The notes beneath the pieces were generated by a model that was given only the letters and a program-made list of their open reading frames with translations, ran no database searches and had not been told where the DNA came from. Positions 5,921 to 36,358 of a DNA stretch of 64,000 nucleotides are shown here, piece by piece (the first letter of the stretch is position 1; each line of letters opens with the position of its first letter). The position numbers were made by a program, and so were the translations under genes. The stretch lies in IMG/VR virus record IMGVR_UViG_3300028797_000098, positions 38,321 to 102,320 of that record, one strand, 5' to 3'. Source of the DNA: a virus (taxonomy: Duplodnaviria; Heunggongvirae; Uroviricota; Caudoviricetes).

Positions 5921-5995
5921 GGGTTTGTAGCTCAGTTTTGGCAGAGCGCCTGCCCTGCAAGCAGGAGGTCGCGGATTCGAATTCCGCCAGATCCA
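5921..5995 (+). tRNA. tRNA-Ala(TGC)
   Basis: Cloverleaf read by eye. G3:U70 present. Anticodon loop ccTGCaa. T-loop TTCGAAT. No encoded CCA. Confidence 0.7.
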
Positions 5996-6053
5996 CTAAC
6001 GCTTGGCTCGTGAAGCCTCGCAGCAGATTGACATTTCGGATGACTTTTATTAT

Positions 6054-6129
6054 GGGCCATTAGCTCAGTTTTGGTAGAGCGCCTGCATGGCATGCAGGAG
6101 GTCATCGGTTCGAGTCCGATATCGGTCCA
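6054..6129 (+). tRNA. tRNA-Ala(GGC)
   Basis: Anticodon loop atGGCat. G3:U70 only if one nt bulges in the 3' acceptor strand. Confidence 0.55.
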
Positions 6130-6138
6130 GTACACTAT

Positions 6139-6214
6139 GGGTCATTAGCTCAGTTTTGGTAGAGCACTTCGTTCGCATCGAAGAGGTCGTCGGTTCGAGC
6201 CCGACATCGATCCA
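6139..6214 (+). tRNA. tRNA-Ala(CGC)
   Basis: Anticodon loop ttCGCat. Same 3'-acceptor bulge as the previous tRNA. Confidence 0.55.
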
Positions 6215-6218
6215 CTAT

Positions 6219-6290
6219 GCTCCATTAGCTTAACTGGAAGAGCACCCGGCTACGAACCGGACGATTGGGATTCGACTTCCTGATGGAGCA
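6219..6290 (+). tRNA. tRNA-Arg(ACG)
   Basis: Perfect acceptor GCTCCAT/ATGGAGC. Anticodon loop ctACGaa. Confidence 0.65.
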
Positions 6291-6299
6291 CTACTTTAT

Positions 6300-6373
6300 G
6301 GGACCTTAGAATACGCTGGCTAGTTCATCGCCCTTTCACGGCGGGGAACCGGGATCGACACCCGGAGGTCCTA
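6300..6373 (+). tRNA. tRNA-Glu(TTC)
   Basis: Anticodon arm CGCCCTTTCACGGCGG identical to E. coli tRNA-Glu. Anticodon loop ctTTCac. Confidence 0.7.
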
Positions 6374-6445
6374 CTAAATGGATTTTGGAGCAGTATCCAT
6401 CCGGCTTTGCCGGGAAGCAACCTAGGTTGCATCGTGCTCCACCAT

Positions 6446-6519
6446 CCTCATCTATATCAATTGGTTAGATAGCTACTCTGATAAGGTAGAGGTTCCTGAT
6501 TCGAGCTCAGGGGTGAGGA
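6446..6519 (+). tRNA. tRNA-Ile(GAT)
   Basis: Acceptor CCTCATC/GGTGAGG. Anticodon loop ctGATaa. T-loop TTCGAGC. Confidence 0.65.
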
Positions 6520-6523
6520 CTAT

Positions 6524-6596
6524 GGGTCTGTAGCTTAAGAGGAAGAGCGTCCGGTTTGCACCCGGTTGGTATGGTTTCGAGCACCATCAGTATCCA
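6524..6596 (+). tRNA. tRNA-Ala(TGC), second copy
   Basis: Anticodon loop ttTGCac. G3:U70 with a 1-nt bulge in the 3' acceptor strand. Confidence 0.5.
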
Positions 6597-6613
6597 CGAT
6601 TTTAATTCTATAT

Positions 6614-6686
6614 GCACCATTAGCTCAGTTGGTAGAGCAGTTGCCTCTTAAGCATCGGGTCCAAGGTCCGAGTCCTTGATGGTGCA
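6614..6686 (+). tRNA. tRNA-Lys(CTT)
   Basis: Perfect acceptor GCACCAT/ATGGTGC. Anticodon loop ctCTTaa. Confidence 0.65.
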
Positions 6687-6698
6687 CGAAGAAATTAT

Positions 6699-6773
6699 TG
6701 CGGTGTAGCTCAGTCCGGTCAGAGCAGCGGAATCATAATCCGTTGGTCGAAGGTTCAAATCCTTCTTCCGCAA
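6699..6773 (+). tRNA. tRNA-Met or Ile2 (CAT)
   Basis: U1:A72. Anticodon loop atCATaa. T-loop TTCAAAT. Confidence 0.6.
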
Positions 6774-6886
6774 CGATGCAGCCCGGCAGTTAAAGAATGC
6801 CGGTCCCGACAAAGATAAGGTCGGTCGGTATAAAGCGCCGAAACAACATAAGAACCTAAAGCACCGGGGGCTGCGTTAAACATTTT

Positions 6887-6960
6887 GGGGGCGTGGTGAA
6901 GAGGCTCAACACAGCGGTCTGTCTAACCGCCATTCGCGGGTTCGAACCCCGCCGCTCTCG
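6887..6960 (+). tRNA. tRNA-Asp(GTC)
   Basis: Anticodon arm GCGGT-ctGTCta-ACCGC. Acceptor with two G:U pairs. T-loop TTCGAAC. Confidence 0.55.
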
Positions 6961-6964
6961 TTAT

Positions 6965-7039
6965 ACTCGGTTAGCTCAGTTGGTCCAGAGCGGCTGCCTT
7001 ACAAGCAGCGGGTCAGCGGTTCGACTCCGTTATCGAGTA
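6965..7039 (+). tRNA. tRNA-Val(TAC)
   Basis: Anticodon loop ctTACaa. D-loop agttggtcca. Confidence 0.65.
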
Positions 7040-7048
7040 CGAAATTAT

Positions 7049-7120
7049 AGGGATTTAGGACAGTGGCTAGTCTAGCGCTCTCCAAAAGCGTCTACGGGAG
7101 TTCGAGTCTCTCAGTCCCTG
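7049..7120 (+). tRNA. tRNA-Trp(CCA)
   Basis: Anticodon loop ctCCAaa. T-loop TTCGAGT. Confidence 0.65.
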
Positions 7121-7132
7121 CGAAATTTTTAT

Positions 7133-7215
7133 GGGTGTGCCGAAGAGTTGGAGATCTTCTTCGGTCTGTAAAACCGACGGCTACGCCTTTGATGGTCCGA
7201 ATCCATCCACACCCA
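7133..7215 (+). tRNA. tRNA-Tyr(GTA), class II
   Basis: Perfect acceptor GGGTGTG/CACACCC. Anticodon loop ctGTAaa. 13-nt variable arm. Confidence 0.7.
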
Positions 7216-7226
7216 CTATTCTTTAT

Positions 7227-7299
7227 TCCACCTTAGCTCAGTAGGTAGAGCGGGCGACTGTTAATCGCCTGGTCCCACGTTCGAGTCGTGGAGGTGGAG
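7227..7299 (+). tRNA. tRNA-Asn(GTT)
   Basis: Acceptor TCCACCT/AGGTGGA. Anticodon loop ctGTTaa. Confidence 0.7.
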
Positions 7300-7306
7300 C
7301 TAATAT

Positions 7307-7382
7307 TGCCGATTAGCCAAGCGGTAAGGCGCCGCGCTCTGAACGCGGGATTCTTTCGGTGGTTCGATCCCATCATCGGCAA
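7307..7382 (+). tRNA. tRNA-Gln(CTG)
   Basis: U1:A72. Anticodon loop ctCTGaa. Unusually long 9-nt variable region. Confidence 0.5.
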
Positions 7383-7393
7383 CTAAATTTTAT

Positions 7394-7464
7394 GCACCTA
7401 TGTTGTAGTGGTAGCAAACGACCTTGCCATGGTTGAAGCTCCGGATCGTACCCGGATAGGTGCT
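7394..7464 (+). tRNA. tRNA-Gly(GCC)
   Basis: Perfect acceptor GCACCTA/TAGGTGC. Anticodon loop ttGCCat. Confidence 0.7.
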
Positions 7465-7468
7465 CTAT

Positions 7469-7553
7469 CTCGTCGTGGGGGAATTTGGTAGACCCGCCAG
7501 CTTGAGGGGTTGGTGTTGAAATACACGTGGTGGTTCGAGACCACTCGACGAGA
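7469..7553 (+). tRNA. tRNA-Leu(GAG), class II
   Basis: Anticodon loop ttGAGgg. Long variable arm. Confidence 0.6.
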
Positions 7554-7566
7554 CTAACTTTAACAA

Positions 7567-7651
7567 CGCCCAGTGATGGAATTGGGTAGACAATGCGGAC
7601 TTAAAATCCGCAGCGAGTATTCGCGTGCCGGTTCGATGCCGGTCTGGGCGA
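7567..7651 (+). tRNA. tRNA-Leu(TAA), class II
   Basis: Perfect acceptor CGCCCAG/CTGGGCG. Anticodon loop ctTAAaa. Variable-arm stem GCGA/TCGC. Confidence 0.6.
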
Positions 7652-7725
7652 CTACAAGGGACAATGAATATGAAACGAAAATACAAACGATTATGATGGT
7701 GACGACTGCCAATTCAGTCGTGTCG

Positions 7726-7798
7726 GCTCCATTAACTCAGAAGATAGAGTACCGCCCTTTTAAGGCGGGAGTCGAGATGGCGGAATTCTCATGGAGCA
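7726..7798 (+). tRNA. tRNA-Lys(TTT)
   Basis: Perfect acceptor GCTCCAT/ATGGAGC. Anticodon loop ctTTTaa. Non-canonical T-loop GGCGGAA. Confidence 0.5.
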
Positions 7799-7805
7799 CT
7801 ATAAT

Positions 7806-7876
7806 GCACCTATGGTGTAGCGGTAACACGGCAGTCTTCCAAACTGCACTCGCCAGTTCGATTCTGACTAGGTGCT
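7806..7876 (+). tRNA. tRNA-Gly(TCC)
   Basis: Same acceptor as tRNA-Gly(GCC). Anticodon loop ctTCCaa. Confidence 0.65.
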
Positions 7877-7885
7877 TTATTATAC

Positions 7886-7967
7886 CGATCTGTGGCGGAA
7901 AGCATACGCAACGCACTCAAAATGCGTCGTCCGAAAGGAATTGTGGGTTCGTGTCCCACCAGATCGA
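7886..7967 (+). tRNA. tRNA-Leu(CAA), class II
   Basis: Perfect acceptor CGATCTG/CAGATCG. Anticodon loop ctCAAaa. Long variable arm. Confidence 0.6.
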
Positions 7968-7971
7968 CTAT

Positions 7972-8056
7972 CGGCATGTGGCGTAACTGGTAGCCGCGCT
8001 GCGTTCAGGGCGCAGTGTACATTTGTACGTGATGGGTTCGAATCCCTCTGTGCCGA
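7972..8056 (+). tRNA. tRNA-Leu(CAG), class II
   Basis: Anticodon loop ttCAGgg. Variable-arm hairpin GTACA/TGTAC. Weak T-stem. Confidence 0.5.
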
Positions 8057-8061
8057 CTTAT

Positions 8062-8133
8062 GGCCCCTTAGACCAGCGGTTAAGTCACAGGATTCTCATT
8101 CCTGGCACCCGAGTTCGAGCCTCGGAGGGGCTA
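8062..8133 (+). tRNA. tRNA-Glu(CTC)
   Basis: Anticodon loop ttCTCat. T-arm CCGAG-TTCGAGC-CTCGG. Confidence 0.6.
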
Positions 8134-8137
8134 CTAT

Positions 8138-8210
8138 TGGGCCGTGGTGCAATTGGTAGCACGCAAGATTTTGAGTCTTGATGTTGTTGGTTCAAGTCCA
8201 GCCAGCTCAA
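8138..8210 (+). tRNA. tRNA-Gln(TTG)
   Basis: U1:A72. Anticodon arm CAAGA-ttTTGag-TCTTG. Confidence 0.6.
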
Positions 8211-8213
8211 TTC

Positions 8214-8296
8214 CCCGAGGTGGCGGAATGGTAGACGCGCCTGCCTTAGGAGCAGGTGCCCGGAAGGGCGTGCAGGTTCGAGTCCTGTCCTCGGGA
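8214..8296 (+). tRNA. tRNA-Leu(TAG), class II
   Basis: Perfect acceptor CCCGAGG/CCTCGGG. Anticodon loop ctTAGga. Long variable arm. Confidence 0.6.
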
Positions 8297-8305
8297 TAAT
8301 GATAT

Positions 8306-8380
8306 GCGCTCTTAGCCAAGCCTGGTCTAAGGCAAGTGGTTGCAACCCACTGATCGGCGGTCCGAATCCGTCAGAGCGCT
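8306..8380 (+). tRNA. tRNA-Cys(GCA)
   Basis: Perfect acceptor GCGCTCT/AGAGCGC. Anticodon loop ttGCAac. Confidence 0.65.
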
Positions 8381-8394
8381 CGAAAGATTTTTAT

Positions 8395-8467
8395 GGGGCT
8401 GTAGCTCAGTTGGTAGAGCGGCAGGTTGAAGCCCTGCGCGTCGGAGGTTCGACTCCTCCCGGTCCCA
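8395..8467 (+). tRNA. tRNA-Phe(GAA)
   Basis: Canonical GTAGCTCAGTTGGTAGAGC D-arm. Anticodon loop ttGAAgc. Confidence 0.7.
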
Positions 8468-8473
8468 CTATTT

Positions 8474-8561
8474 GGAAATGTCCCATAATTGGTTATTGGC
8501 CCTCCTTGGAAAGGAGCGTGGTGGTGAAAGCTGCATGAAGGTTCGAGTCCTCCCATTTCCG
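8474..8561 (+). tRNA. tRNA-Ser(GGA), class II
   Basis: Perfect acceptor GGAAATG/CATTTCC. Anticodon loop ttGGAaa. Long variable arm. Confidence 0.55.
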
Positions 8562-8568
8562 CGAATTT

Positions 8569-8655
8569 GGAAGCGTAGACCTAATTGGTAAGGCCCCCGG
8601 CCCGAACCCGGTGGTGAGGAAGTTCCTCATGTAGGTTCAAGTCCTGCCGCTTCCG
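8569..8655 (+). tRNA. tRNA-Ser(CGA), class II
   Basis: Perfect acceptor GGAAGCG/CGCTTCC. Long variable arm. Anticodon reading CGA is tentative. Confidence 0.45.
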
Positions 8656-8659
8656 CTAT

Positions 8660-8743
8660 GGAAGCGCACGAGATTGGCGACTCAAGCGGACTTGAAATCC
8701 GTGGTTCCGCAAGGGCTTGGGGGTTCGACTCCCTCCGCTTCCG
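8660..8743 (+). tRNA. tRNA-Ser(TGA), class II
   Basis: Same acceptor as the previous tRNA. Anticodon loop ctTGAaa as in E. coli tRNA-Ser. Confidence 0.55.
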
Positions 8744-8752
8744 CGAAAGTAT

Positions 8753-8825
8753 TCCGACATAGCTCAATTGGTAGAGCAGTTCATTCGTAATGAACCGGTT
8801 GCTCGTTCGACCCGAGCTGTCGGAG
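8753..8825 (+). tRNA. tRNA-Thr(CGT)
   Basis: Perfect acceptor TCCGACA/TGTCGGA. Anticodon loop ttCGTaa. Confidence 0.65.
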
Positions 8826-8829
8826 CTAT

Positions 8830-8918
8830 GGAGAGGTAGCCTAATTGGTAAGGCAGGGGCTTGCTAAGCCCCCGTGGCCCTCAAAAGCTGCTTGCAGGTT
8901 CGAACCCTGTCCTCTCCT
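8830..8918 (+). tRNA. tRNA-Ser(GCT), class II
   Basis: Perfect acceptor GGAGAGG/CCTCTCC. Anticodon loop ttGCTaa. Long variable arm. Confidence 0.55.
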
Positions 8919-8924
8919 CTACAT

Positions 8925-8998
8925 GGTGTCAGTAGCTCAATCGGTGGAGCCCTGGTTTGTGGAACCAGCTGTTGCAAGTTCAAGCCTTGTCTGATACC
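8925..8998 (+). tRNA. tRNA-His(GTG) with encoded G-1
   Basis: Extra 5' G opposite discriminator C. Anticodon loop ttGTGga. Confidence 0.65.
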
Positions 8999-9046
8999 CT
9001 AAGTCATCTGAAATGTCGCGGATTTATTCAAGCAAAAGGATACAAC

Positions 9047-9376
9047 ATGATTACGGTAGCACAGATCAACGAATTGCGCAAGGCGACCCAGGTGAGCATG
9101 CTTCTATGTAAGCAGGCCCTGGAAGCGACCGGTGGCGATTTCGATGCCGCCAAGGAATGGCTCAGGGGCCAGGGCGGCGAGGTCGCCGGTGGCCCTTCCG
9201 AGTTCGGCGTCACCCTTTTCGCCGATGGCGCCGTCAATCAGCATGGTGTCACCGATGTCTTCACCTATTCCGACGGACATTCCACCGTGGACATCCGCGG
9301 TTATAGCGGTACGACCCCTTCTACCGTATGGGCCGATTTCAGGCACCAGCTCGTATTGAGACCGGCCAAGGCCTAG
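9047..9376 (+). CDS. EF-Ts N-terminal (UBA-like) domain protein
   Basis: AAAGGA SD then ATG. MITVAQINELRKATQVSMLLCKQALEATGGDFDAAKEWLRGQG resembles the EF-Tu-binding N-terminus of EF-Ts. The remainder is unrelated. Confidence 0.5.
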   Translation: MITVAQINELRKATQVSMLLCKQALEATGGDFDAAKEWLRGQGGEVAGGPSEFGVTLFADGAVNQHGVTDVFTYSDGHSTVDIRGYSGTTPSTVWADFRHQLVLRPAKA

Positions 9377-9383
9377 TCTTTCA

Positions 9384-9459
9384 GCCGGCGTAGCTCAATG
9401 GACTTCAGAGCACTCGACTTCTAATCGACAGGTTGCCAGTTCGACCCTGGCCGTCGGCA
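9384..9459 (+). tRNA. tRNA-Arg(TCT)
   Basis: Anticodon loop ctTCTaa. T-arm GCCAG-TTCGACC-CTGGC. Followed by TTTTTT. Confidence 0.6.
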
Positions 9460-13367: not shown

Positions 13368-13400
13368 TGGCACTGCTATTTTTCAAAGTAGTGCCATTTT
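13368..13400 (+). terminator. hairpin terminator
   Basis: AATGGCACTGCT-attttt-caaAGTAGTGCCATT followed by TTTT. Confidence 0.5.
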
Positions 13401-31601: not shown

Positions 31602-32408
31602 ATGAAAAAAATCATTGCATTTTTAGCAATTCTCATCCTCTTCGCGTTCACTGGATGCTCCCAGATCGACCAAACTGAACGCGGTGTCGTTCTCAACTTC
31701 GGTAAGGTGAGCGAAACAATGGAACCTGGTCTCAACTTCTACAATGTCATCACTGAGAAGGTGGTCAAGATTCCGGTCAAGACGCAGCTTGAAACCATGC
31801 GGGTCGGTGCCGGCTCAAAGGACATGCAGGAAGTTACCGTCGGGGTCAACGTGAACTATCATATTGATCCAAAGAAGGTTGATGAAGTGTATGGCCAGTT
31901 CGGTACTGATGCGGTCGTGACTATCTTGCAGCCGAAGATGCGTGAAACCATTACCGGTGTTACCCCACAATATGTTGCAGAAGAAATGTTGCAGAAGCGT
32001 GAAGAAGTCCGTCGCCGTATGGAACAGGCTTTGCGTAACAAACTGGATTCAGCCAATTCCCATATCATTCTTGACGGCTTTACCATCTATGAATTCAAGT
32101 TTGACGCCCAGTTTAACAAGAGTATCTTGGATAAGCAGATTGCTGAACAGAATTCCTTGAAGGAAAAGAATATCCTTAAGGCTGTTGAATACCAGAATGA
32201 ACAGAAGAAGATTGCTGCCAAGGCTGATTCTGCTGCCAAGGTTATTGCTGCCAAGGCTGATTCTGTAGTAATTGCCACCCGTCTCAAGGCGTTAAAGCAG
32301 CAAAACAGCAAGGAATATATCACGTTGCAGTGGATTGAAACCTGGAATGGCGAGCTCCCCGACGTTGTGGCCAATGACAAAATCATGCCAATCATTGACT
32401 TGAAATAA
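31602..32408 (+). CDS. SPFH/band-7 (prohibitin-like) lipoprotein
   Basis: Lipobox signal MKKIIAFLAILILFAFTGC. SPFH-like core with coiled-coil C-terminus. Confidence 0.6.
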   Translation: MKKIIAFLAILILFAFTGCSQIDQTERGVVLNFGKVSETMEPGLNFYNVITEKVVKIPVKTQLETMRVGAGSKDMQEVTVGVNVNYHIDPKKVDEVYGQFGTDAVVTILQPKMRETITGVTPQYVAEEMLQKREEVRRRMEQALRNKLDSANSHIILDGFTIYEFKFDAQFNKSILDKQIAEQNSLKEKNILKAVEYQNEQKKIAAKADSAAKVIAAKADSVVIATRLKALKQQNSKEYITLQWIETWNGELPDVVANDKIMPIIDLK

Positions 32409-32437
32409 AATTTAGGAAAATCCTCCGATATGGCTGG

Positions 32438-32455
32438 AAATTTGCTATATTCGGG
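32438..32455 (+). promoter_or_regulatory. promoter element AAATTTGCTATATTCGGG
   Basis: Followed by a non-coding structured region and then tRNA-Gly(CCC). Confidence 0.45.
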
Positions 32456-32708
32456 ATAACAGTCGTCCGTTCTGCCACAAGAATCAGTGGAGTGTCGCTT
32501 GGGGTCATGACCAGGCAGCCGATGAGCGGTCCTGAATCATCAGTAAATGGTTCTGTGCCCATGCAGATATCATGCGGCGGGGGATGCCTTTCCCCTTTCT
32601 GGAAATTCGCTCCCATAAGGAAGAAATTAGGCACCCTTCCCCTGGGGTAAAAGGGGAAACGGTTGGACCACCCGTTACCGTGACGTGATTTACCACGGAG
32701 GCCCACCA

Positions 32709-32781
32709 TGCGGGAGTAGCTCAGGTGGTAGAGCGAGGCATTCCCATTGCCTAGGTCGCGAGTTCGAATCTCGTCTCCCGC
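32709..32781 (+). tRNA. tRNA-Gly(CCC)
   Basis: Perfect acceptor GCGGGAG/CTCCCGC. Anticodon loop ttCCCat. T-loop TTCGAAT. Confidence 0.7.
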
Positions 32782-32800
32782 TTTAGCAAAGGATGACAAC

Positions 32801-33061
32801 ATGGCACTGTACACGACGCCGAAAGAGACCACTTGGAAGGAGTTCCAGAGCACAGGACTTCTTCTTTTTATCAACACCTTCCTACACATCTTCGGGTGGT
32901 GCATCGTGATTGAGTGTGACGATGAAGGCGCCGACCGTGCATACCCCGCCCGCACATCCTGGCGCGGTTTCTCCGAGGATTCGATGACCCGTGCTTACCA
33001 GAAACTTACAAAGAAGATGCAGGAAGACCTCCCGCAGCTTCTCGAAGATACGAAGGACTAA
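32801..33061 (+). CDS. small membrane protein
   Basis: AAAGGA then ATG. TM helix GLLLFINTFLHIFGWCIVI. Confidence 0.35.
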   Translation: MALYTTPKETTWKEFQSTGLLLFINTFLHIFGWCIVIECDDEGADRAYPARTSWRGFSEDSMTRAYQKLTKKMQEDLPQLLEDTKD

Positions 33062-33063
33062 TA

Positions 33064-33863
33064 TGGCTGAAAGTGAATTTGACGACGTAAGATGCACTGC
33101 CCAGGATGGACAGGAAACTGAGTTCTACCACTGGGCAATCAAGCTCCAGAAGGACCCGTGGACCGTCCGTACTGACAAAATTCAGGACATTAAGTACCTG
33201 TTCTTCCGTTGGAACCATGGACAAGTGAATGCTTTTGAAGTTTCCATGAAATTTGACCTGGAAACCGGTCATTATGACGTATGTAATGTGGTTCCACTTG
33301 CGATTCCTCAATTTACCCCTCGTGAGTATAATAATAATCTTGAACGATTTGTGAATGAGATTCTTATTCCATTCAATCAGGAAAATGGAAATTCGCTTCA
33401 TTTTGAATATGAGAGATGCGGCGGACGCATGACCTATGATTACAGTCTGGATATCAAGGATATGTGGAGCAAACAGACTACCGAGGATTTACAGAAAATC
33501 TTCGTTCGAGAGATGTATTGCGCCCGTATTGAAATAATGGAAGATGTGCTTAACAGATACACGCATGAAATTGTTTCACTTGAAAAACATTCGGAAATTT
33601 CCCATCAGATTGCCGATATTATTACGAGACAGCTGCTTAGACCGGCAGATTGCGATGTTTTGATGGCAGCACAGTGCTTTGTCGGTATGTGCATGAAGAA
33701 AATGGTCATGTGCACACCTCCCACAACGATGTTTGATGAGTTCCTGACTGATGAATACCGAAAGCATTTAAATTTACTAATCGGCGTTGATACAAACTTG
33801 CTGGAAGGCACTATTCAGATTGGTGCCATAAGAACTAGCGTGTATTCGTTTTTTGCCAATTAA
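33064..33863 (+). CDS. hypothetical protein
   Basis: 266-aa ORF. Confidence 0.45.
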
Positions 33864-34963: not shown

Positions 34964-36358
34964 ATGGCACAGATTCTTACAGAAAAGAAGAAACTTAGCT
35001 TGGCAATGCCGAACAGAAAGGGTCGTCGCAAGCCGGATGCAAGGCTCATTACGCCGGCTCTTCCGAAACAGTACAAGAAAAAGGACCCGAATAAATGGAT
35101 TATTCAACATTTGACTGCAACCGATTTATACAAGTACAGCATGGGCCAGTTGTACTTCCACAAGCACCGTAATGTACAGGCCCGCTGGGAGTTTAAACTC
35201 CGTTCCAAGGGTGTACGCCTTGATTACTTGCACGATGCAATCAATCGCGAACTCGACCACCTTTGCACCCTCCGCTATACGGATTGGGAACTTACTGGAA
35301 TTGGTAAAGTTGCACCGTGGATTGATGATGACTTCCTCCGTGAACTGAAACGCTTCCAGTTGCAGCGTGAATACATTCACTGCGAATATGATCCGGACGA
35401 TGAATGTGGGCTCAAAATCTGGGCAGAAGGCTCCCAGATGGATGTCTACTGGTTTGAAATCTACGTGTTGCAGATTGTGCAGCACCTCTACTTCGACGAC
35501 CTTGAAATCGACTGGGAAGCTTCCAAGCGTAACCTTGCCGAAGTAATCAAGAAGTGGAAGGAAGCATCCGAACGCGGCATCAAGTTTACCGTTTCTGACT
35601 TCGGTATCCGCCGTGGCGTATCCGACGAATGGAACGAATACATGGTGTCCACCCTCTTGAAGGAACTTCCGGGCGTGTTTGTGGGTACATCCAATGTGTA
35701 CCTCGCTATCAAGCTTGGTTGTAAGGCTATCGGCACTTTTGCGCATGAGCTTTACGCGGTCTACCAGGGCCTCGATGATGTAAAGCTCCGCAAGTGCCAG
35801 ACTCAGGTGTTTGAAGACTGGATGCACGAATTCGGCGGTGATCTCGGTATTGCCTTGTCCGATAACTTTGGCTTCAAGGCGTTCCTCGAAGATTTCGGTG
35901 CAGGCTCTCGTCGCGGCAAGCTCTATGCCAAGGTGTTCGATGGCTGCCGGCATGACTCCGGCAACCCGTACACTTGGGGCGAAATGCTCATTGCCCATTA
36001 CAAGAAGTTGAAGATTGACCCGGCCACCAAGGTTGGCTGTTGGAGCGACAGTCTCGATGTGGACAAGTCCATCGCCATCGCCGAGCACTTCAACCTCCGT
36101 ATCAAGATTGCCTTCGGCATCGGGACATTCCTCAGTGCTTCCATCGTGAAGTTCAAGGGCAATGCCGAGCGCAAGCCGCTTTCCATGGTCATGAAGGTTG
36201 TGAAGGTCAAGGCCCACAACGATGCACCGTGGGTTTGGGCTGTTAAACTGTCCGATTCCATCGGCAAGACCATGTGCCCCGACCAGGACCATGTGGAACT
36301 CGTAAAACGGACATTCAATTACAGCTCCATCGACGAGGTGCAGGAGGTTTGCCAGTGA
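34964..36358 (+). CDS. nadV: nicotinamide phosphoribosyltransferase (NAMPT/NadV)
   Basis: 464 aa. NAPRTase-family core resemblance (FGIRRGVS, GTSNVYLA...FAHELY). Partner of the NMNAT-Nudix gene, as in known phage NAD+ salvage pairs. Confidence 0.65.
   Translation: MAQILTEKKKLSLAMPNRKGRRKPDARLITPALPKQYKKKDPNKWIIQHLTATDLYKYSMGQLYFHKHRNVQARWEFKLRSKGVRLDYLHDAINRELDHLCTLRYTDWELTGIGKVAPWIDDDFLRELKRFQLQREYIHCEYDPDDECGLKIWAEGSQMDVYWFEIYVLQIVQHLYFDDLEIDWEASKRNLAEVIKKWKEASERGIKFTVSDFGIRRGVSDEWNEYMVSTLLKELPGVFVGTSNVYLAIKLGCKAIGTFAHELYAVYQGLDDVKLRKCQTQVFEDWMHEFGGDLGIALSDNFGFKAFLEDFGAGSRRGKLYAKVFDGCRHDSGNPYTWGEMLIAHYKKLKIDPATKVGCWSDSLDVDKSIAIAEHFNLRIKIAFGIGTFLSASIVKFKGNAERKPLSMVMKVVKVKAHNDAPWVWAVKLSDSIGKTMCPDQDHVELVKRTFNYSSIDEVQEVCQ

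Follow-up and report, generated by a model that had tools for sequence, protein, structure and literature searches.

Non-coding RNAs that share a precursor with a tRNA-shaped element include MALAT1-mascRNA, MEN-beta, the MHV68 tRNA-miRNA, and the plant tRNA-snoRNA genes. In genes of the MALAT1-mascRNA type, the ends of the non-coding RNA are set by tRNA-processing enzymes. These genes are eukaryotic or herpesviral and some of them carry a tRNA mimic, whereas the partner at the phage locus described here is a bona fide, apparently decoding bacteriophage tRNA. The production of a defined RNA by tRNA-type processing is also the logic common to RNAC and RNAD of phage T4 and, as proposed below, to the RNA studied here. 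In T4, RNAC and RNAD are small stable RNAs of the tRNA region that are co-transcribed with phage tRNA genes, and their roles are unknown (PMC3014915). GOLLD and ROOL are phage RNAs of unknown function that are often found near tRNA islands, with ROOL first identified in data from the cow rumen (PMC12286853, PMC5737381).

The RNA studied here precedes an isolated tRNA-Gly(CCC) gene and is a new RNA family within a known category, the phage structured RNAs associated with tRNA genes. Its nearest precedents, RNAC/RNAD and GOLLD/ROOL, are no more than analogies. Like RNAC and RNAD, it is predicted to be co-transcribed with phage tRNA; it is about twice as long as they are, pseudoknotted, without sequence similarity to them, and tied to one isolated tRNA outside the 33-tRNA array. 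With GOLLD and ROOL it shares a phage-borne location near tRNA genes and a complex, multi-junction, pseudoknotted fold. Unlike them, it is always joined to a single tRNA species and is so far known from one phage group only, and its length is about 240–280 nt, compared with about 580 and over 800 nt for GOLLD/ROOL. T-boxes offer a further likeness, in that a leader RNA of ~250 nt is linked to one tRNA species, and the conserved GGG and UGGU segments described below might, in principle, reach the anticodon and the CCA end. However, the RNA is located upstream of the tRNA gene itself and not of an aminoacyl-tRNA synthetase gene, and neither Stem I features nor the T-box sequence nor a terminator was detected.

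The window, i.e., the whole stretch of phage DNA that was analyzed, is 64,000 nt long, and the features of the locus are listed in Table 1. The promoter element that the original prediction had placed at 32438 was found there as AAATTTGCTATATT (32438–32451), the longer form of the motif in the table. With up to three mismatches, AAATTTGCTATATT occurs 17 times in the window against 7.6 expected, and 17 was reached in 1 of 100 shuffles. The core TTTGCTAYATT has an ATG behind it at nine other places in the window, with 6 nt between the two (7 nt in a single case), and this spacing implies leaderless mRNAs. A GC hairpin with a T run often precedes the core at these ATG-associated sites, which suggests that the sites are terminator-promoter modules making leaderless mRNAs across the phage. 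The motif can be read as an extended −10 element (TGnTATATT) and resembles the Bacteroidota −7 element TAnnTTTG; we infer a promoter of the extended −10 type. The copy upstream of the structured RNA differs from the nine others in having no ATG behind it: ~250 nt follow, and then the tRNA. Based on the spacing of motif plus 6 nt at the leaderless genes, the transcription start would be at A32458, ~7 nt past the motif. The short leader that follows differs among homologs in both length and sequence.

The gene for a Band_7/SPFH lipoprotein ends at 32408, leaving 301 bases up to the tRNA. The tRNA, earlier described as following directly, is real: ARAGORN called it and its RF00005 score is above the gathering score of 29, but it starts at 32710 and not at 32709. 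Its 5′ leader is an 11-nt linker of poorly conserved sequence, and from general tRNA biology an RNase P cut would be expected between 32709 and 32710. No terminator-like sites were found on the plus strand between 31000 and 34000. Since the 86-aa gene begins 18 nt past the tRNA, with neither promoter motif nor terminator in between, it is probably on the same transcript, and the primary transcript is likely to have the order ncRNA-tRNA-mRNA. The neighboring genes were searched with Pfam and PHROGs, and only the Band_7 lipoprotein, phrog_16397, and a NAPRTase were recognized; no RNA-binding or RNA-guided protein was found. The last of these, a gene of the nicotinate/nicotinamide phosphoribosyltransferase family (34964–36358, +), is located a few genes downstream and is kept in relatives. 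NAD+ pathways have been reported in gut jumbo phages (PMC11662467), and the gene is consistent with them. The G+C content is 0.53–0.56 over 32500–33100 (RNA, tRNA, and 86-aa gene), compared with 0.38–0.47 in the flanks.

Table 1. Features of the RNA-tRNA locus and related sites; position 1 is the first nucleotide of the window.
Feature	Position	Strand	Details
Other TTTGCTAYATT sites with ATG	9860, 13399, 17511, 20797, 25821, 29813, 42548, 58494	+	7-nt spacing at 13399
Other TTTGCTAYATT site with ATG	49740	−	
Promoter-like motif TTTGCTATATT	32441–32451	+	Recurs in window; upstream of 12/12 homologs
Predicted transcription start A32458 and short variable 5′ leader	32458–32460	+	Motif + 6 nt rule
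Conserved core of structured ncRNA	32461–32698	+	238 nt; covariance model R1, 269.6 bits
Invariant AGUCG	32461–32465	+	Unpaired in current model; same in 12/12
5′ three-way junction	32467–32529	+	Closing helix encloses H1 and H2
Closing helix CCGUUC/GAGCGG	32467–32472 with 32524–32529	+	100% paired, nearly invariant
H1	32475–32478 with 32487–32490	+	Loop AAGAAUCA; A-U to C-G in clade B
H2	32494–32502 with 32511–32519	+	Loop GGUCAUGA; 5 pairs changed on both sides
H3 hairpin CUGA-AUCA-UCAG	32532–32543 (32532–35 with 32540–43)	+	100% paired
Conserved single-stranded UGGU	32548–32551	+	G98, G99, U100 invariant
Pseudoknot A	32552–32578	+	S1 interleaved with H4
S1 UCUG/CAGA	32552–32555 with 32564–32567	+	Closing pair GC:6, AU:4, UA:2
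H4 GCCCAUG/CAUGCGGC	32557–32563 with 32571–32578	+	4 pairs changed on both sides
H5 hairpin GGGGA-UGCCUU-UCCCC	32580–32595 (32580–84 with 32591–95)	+	
Pseudoknot B	H5 loop 32585–32589 with 32629–32633	+	UGCCU with AGGCA
H6, variable-length domain	32596–32622	+	Base UUUC/GGAA; 41–68% identity to homologs
H7 UUCCCCU/AGGGGAA	32637–32658 (32637–43 with 32652–58)	+	Loop starts GGG(G)
H8 ACGG/CCGU	32659–32675 (32659–62 with 32672–75)	+	Conserved loop UUGGACCAC; 87.5% paired
H9 CCGUGA/CCACGG	32678–32698 (32678–83 with 32693–98)	+	Conserved loop GUGAUUU; 98.6% paired
Proposed kissing pair	H1 loop 32481–32486 with H9 loop 32686–32691	+	GAAUCA with UGAUUU
Linker, tRNA 5′ leader	32699–32709	+	11 nt; poorly conserved: AGGCCCACCAU vs AGGUUCAU
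tRNA-Gly, anticodon CCC	32710–32782	+	No encoded CCA; ARAGORN; Rfam RF00005, 65.7 bits
First downstream gene, phrog_16397	32801–33061	+	86 aa; hydrophobic segment

Homologs were collected by two routes: via the 86-aa protein, and via an invariant 20-mer in JGI metagenomes with filtering by nhmmer and the covariance model. Conservation in related phages, which had been suggested as a check, was found in the form of 12 distinct full-length copies (the window, L044, L008, L016, L021, L015, L034, L037, L030, L001, L004, and L010) and two partial ones. The copies were from rumen/bovine and other animal-gut metagenomes, on contigs of up to 299,887 bp, which identifies the carrier as a jumbo phage group. 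One contig with the element was present in IMG/VR. In INPHARED (50,697 phage records, T4 included), blastn with word size 11 matched the tRNA part only, and so gave no sequence link to RNAC or RNAD either. In GTDB genomes, the 20-mer matches were chance ones only, as judged by nhmmer and the covariance model. A single-sequence scan with the Band_7 protein gave no matches, and covariance model R1 found no second copy within the window.

The copies show a strict linkage of the RNA to the promoter motif and to tRNA-Gly(CCC): every one has the same motif upstream and this tRNA directly downstream, and the Band_7 gene heads the layout wherever that flank was recovered. L003 carries an insertion of two genes downstream of the tRNA, which leaves the RNA-tRNA unit unbroken. 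In four more distant relatives that keep the 86-aa gene (L007, L017, L018, and L071), both the RNA and the tRNA are absent. The tRNA body of the homologs is 69–84% identical to that of the window, with the anticodon CCC in all. Among the glycine codons of the window ORFs, GGG is used least (15%); this rarity is no explanation for the linkage of RNA and tRNA.

Three further observations were made on these contigs. Between phages with nearly identical upstream RNAs, the tRNA-Gly(CCC) body is swapped or mosaic (L016 vs L021). In L014 (251–326), the same tRNA body has a Val (CAC) anticodon, and as an N-run and the end of an EF-Tu-like gene adjoin it, this contig is probably an assembly chimera. 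The insert of L003 (330–2888) encodes two proteins, one of 418 aa that has a DUF559 endonuclease domain and one of 412 aa, ahead of the 86-aa gene, and looks like a mobile insertion immediately past the tRNA.

The evidence for structure is comparative only, because the single sequence folds with an ordinary energy (z = −0.64 and −0.53). The helices were proposed from the alignment before they were tested. Pairing in the plain MAFFT alignment extended to 86.2% of the cells, compared with 35–48% when the partners were slid, and 15 pairs had changed on both sides (2–6 when slid); the score was reached by none of 500 shuffles. For the alignment fitted to R1, the trimmed covariance model, and with the tertiary helices included, 93.1% of the cells were paired (38–47% when slid), 22 of 68 pairs had changed on both sides (3–8 when slid), and the covariation score was again reached in 0 of 500 shuffles. 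These counts come from 12 homologs in two clades of one phage group; some of them reflect shared ancestry, and part of the alignment had been fitted to R1 before counting. About 10 helices, two pseudoknots, and one loop-loop pairing have comparative support. The 5′ and 3′ thirds are 68–89% identical and the middle 41–68%; a variable-length arm together with invariant loops is typical of a folded functional RNA. The comparison of the homologs shows 32461–32698 to be a conserved, pseudoknotted, non-coding fold.

The stems named in the original prediction were largely recovered and are kept in the homologs with compensatory changes. AACGG/CCGTT corresponds to H8, which reads ACCGG/CCGGU in L030 with compensation, and CCGTG/CACGG to H9, where the first pair is CG in nine sequences and UA in three. 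GCCT...AGGC is pseudoknot B, formed by the H5 loop with 32629–32633. The palindrome CCCCTGGGG turned out to be no helix by itself: its CCCC pairs with a GGGG further downstream to form H7, and the adjacent GGGG is in the loop. H7 itself reads UUCCACCG/CGGUGGAA in other clade A members, and one of its pairs is AU in five sequences and CG in five. Its loop opens with GGG in 11 of the 12 sequences, L037 being the exception. In the by-eye register, pseudoknot B changes from UGCCU/AGGCA to CGCCU/AGGCG, and to CUCCU/AGGAG in L034 and L037; on the columns fitted to the covariance model, it is 80% paired with one pair changed on both sides.

Changes of the same kind were seen in the remaining helices. 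The second pair of H3 is CG in five sequences, UA in four, and GC in three. H4, GCCCAUG/CAUGGGC in the window, becomes GUCUAUG/CAUGGAC and GCCAUCG/CGAUGGC in homologs, and the H5 stem becomes CGAGC/GCUCG and CGGGC/GCCCG in clade B. H6 has ~40 extra nt in clade B and a deletion in L030. The pairing between the H1 and H9 loops comprises 6 bp and is 100% paired in 12 of 12 sequences, with five pairs invariant and the sixth changing from G.U to G-C in clade B. Since these loops never change on both sides, their complementarity makes the kissing pair a proposal and not a proof. No partner for AGUCG could be assigned from the alignment, and UGGU is complementary to the ACCA-like loops of both H3 and H8, so that it has more than one candidate. 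The H2 loop contains the palindromic UCAUG(A). Two sets of mutually exclusive pairings fit the data, one being a small hairpin that overlaps H4 and the other the pairing of CCGUU either with GAGCGG or with AAUGG. Two further pairings were discarded: a helix closing the 5′ and 3′ ends (GUC with GGC, or AUGGU with ACCAU) is not conserved, and neither is that of the H8 loop GGACC with GGUCC (32528–32532) in clade B.

A gathering-threshold run of Rfam 15 over the whole window identified tRNAs only, and at E ≤ 10 nothing reproducible beyond the tRNA was found in three divergent members, the window, L001, and L016 versions. An empty Rfam result had earlier been named as a refutation. That was mistaken, as a new family should give no Rfam match; together with the lack of an INPHARED relative, the result supports the RNA as novel. 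One weak match of the window to CRISPR-DR57 (20 bits vs 39, E = 0.094) was absent from the homologs. ARAGORN found no tmRNA in the window or the homolog loci, and the tmRNA models of Rfam were silent. RNase P RNA was not matched at E ≤ 10, and the CR-I and CR-V motifs were not visible by eye. The group I intron and self-cleaving ribozyme families of Rfam had no match; there is also no 5′ exon, because the RNA begins a few nt past the predicted transcription start. GOLLD and ROOL models were without a match at E ≤ 10, and the context of these RNAs (in a phage, beside tRNA genes) is found here as a shared context and not as a sign of homology. The T-box model RF00230 gave no match at E ≤ 10 in the same three versions. 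A T-box has a UGGN bulge that pairs with the NCCA end of the tRNA; the only UGGA here, in the H8 loop, reads UGAA, CGAA, or AGAA in clade B, and acceptor pairing by this loop was rejected for that reason. An expression platform ahead of an amino-acid-related gene was not found either: the plus strand has no terminator-like site, and the RNA is followed by the gene for the tRNA. Given the silence of Rfam and ARAGORN, the RNA was not filed under T-box, RNase P, tmRNA, group I intron, GOLLD, ROOL, or riboswitch. A large IMG/VR survey of candidate structured RNAs contains no mention of anything like it (PMC10690425).

The explanation to which we give an even chance of being right is that 32461–32698 forms the core of a phage non-coding RNA that belongs to a new family and acts, as a stable RNA, in its own right. 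Transcription would begin at about A32458 and, without a terminator, continue through the RNA, tRNA-Gly(CCC), and the downstream genes. The RNA would fold into a 5′ three-way junction, two pseudoknots, a variable-length arm, and three 3′ hairpins, with the loop-loop pairing of the first and last hairpins probably closing the fold. By cutting at the 5′ end of the tRNA, host RNase P would free the tRNA and set the 3′ end of the RNA, giving a discrete species of ~250 nt. This stable RNA, by itself or with a protein partner, would have a role tied to the tRNA and the translation programme of the phage. Co-transcription and RNase P processing are proposed on the basis of the promoter geometry, the absence of a plus-strand terminator, and the invariant adjacency of RNA and tRNA; start, processing, stability, and action in trans are all what we infer and not what was observed.

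The RNA might instead be a cis-acting structured leader, riboswitch-like or an element of processing or stability, that sets the output of tRNA-Gly(CCC) and the downstream mRNA from the 86-aa gene to the NAPRTase. This reading, which we regard as rather unlikely, is consistent with the position of the RNA at the 5′ end of a probable operon in a phage whose other promoters of this kind give leaderless mRNAs, with the two pairs of helices that exclude one another although each agrees with every sequence, and with the many invariant nucleotides that could form a ligand pocket. An expression platform is missing, though: there is neither a terminator/anti-terminator pair nor a U-tract before the tRNA, masking of a ribosome-binding site is not an option for a tRNA, and 92 nt separate the RNA from the next ORF, which is located past the tRNA. 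In L003, it is also the tRNA, and not the 86-aa gene, that the element accompanies. The size of the element (~240 nt, ~70 bp) exceeds that of most riboswitch aptamers, and riboswitch families gave no match at E ≤ 10. A stable RNA is favored over the leader on three counts: the missing expression platform, the association of the element with the tRNA instead of the protein genes, and its large size and ornate form. A bolder reading, a new RNA class that works with the one tRNA, is improbable even with its two versions taken together. As a sensor, chaperone, or decoy of the tRNA, unrelated to T-boxes, the RNA would bind the CCC anticodon with its GGG loop and the CCA end with UGGU; as an RNA-only multimer, it would be a miniature ROOL/GOLLD that assembles through the palindromic UCAUGA loop and loop-loop contacts and carries the tRNA as cargo. 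The UCAUGA loop and the loop-loop complementarity leave room, speculatively, for RNA-RNA contacts comparable to those of GOLLD and ROOL. An RNA T-box-like in spirit that binds tRNA-Gly(CCC), sensing, sequestering, or presenting it through pairing of the H7 loop GGG with the anticodon and contact of UGGU with the 3′ CCA end, is very improbable in our estimate. The strict linkage to a tRNA with a constant CCC anticodon and a variable body would agree with it, as would the GGG that opens all but one of the H7 loops, the complementarity of UGGGG in the window to the anticodon loop UCCCA, and the near invariance of UGGU. But G-rich loops are common, the loop is GGAGUGACA in L037 and L047, which nevertheless keep the CCC tRNA, UGGU has candidate partners inside the RNA, and the silent T-box model, the non-conserved UGGA of the H8 loop, and the absent terminator also count against it.

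A ribozyme that processes, for example, itself or the adjacent tRNA is hardly to be expected. The compact pseudoknotted fold, its many invariant unpaired nucleotides (AGUCG, UGAGCGG, UGGU), and its place right beside an RNA processing site would suit such an activity, but ribozyme families gave no match, host RNase P is enough for the tRNA 5′ end, and nothing points to a specific chemistry. There is next to no chance that the region is protein-coding or a neutral spacer with chance stems. The GC-rich stretch does contain open frames, and the ordinary folding energy would fit a spacer. The minus-strand ORF of the original prediction exists (32392–32955, 187 aa), overlaps the tRNA, and is as implausible as was stated, also being broken in other members; it is not the only ORF, since short ones of 33–63 aa occur on both strands, including 52 aa and 38 aa on the plus strand. 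However, a protein-coding signal, sought as a possible refutation, was not found: no ORF on either strand keeps its frame, extent, or start across the homologs, and frame-breaking 1-nt indels distinguish close relatives in the RNA region. A small protein gene was rejected because of these inconsistent frames and indels. A spacer is further opposed by covariation far above the controls and by a conservation equal to that of the flanking genes, and the prediction of a non-coding structured region holds.

As a stable RNA of a new family, the element would bear on several questions. RNAs with folds of this complexity (~70 bp, pseudoknots, many invariant unpaired nucleotides) are rare in bacteria and phages and have repeatedly proved to be ribozymes, riboswitches, or unusual assemblies. 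The one described here is unusually tractable, being ~240 nt long, with ends that would be set by the promoter and the tRNA processing site, and with a strict tie to one tRNA species. It is a case for studying why large phages place ornate RNAs beside tRNA genes, as with GOLLD, ROOL, and RNAC/RNAD, and the phage in which this likely ncRNA-tRNA-mRNA layout occurs seems to rely on leaderless mRNAs elsewhere.

ARAGORN called 34 tRNA genes in the window, 33 of which form the array at 5921–9459; the isolated tRNA-Gly(CCC) is the remaining one. Three observations were made in the array. A 109-aa ORF (9047–9373, +) is located within it, with tRNA-His on one side and tRNA-Arg on the other, and has weak matches to the EF-Ts N-terminal and UBA domains (25.6 bits, under the Pfam cut-off). 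In one gap, 7726–7798 (+) matches the Rfam tRNA model with 38.1 bits, above the gathering score; the match is absent from the ARAGORN calls and from the whole-window gathering run. By eye, its anticodon loop is CTTTTAA, so it may be a Lys-UUU tRNA, and its T arm is odd. Another gap of 112 nt (6775–6886, +) has no tRNA or Rfam call. Its predicted fold is a four-way junction closed by a long stem (MFE −35.6 kcal/mol, z = −3.04), and the gap may contain an aberrant tRNA or a further small structured RNA.
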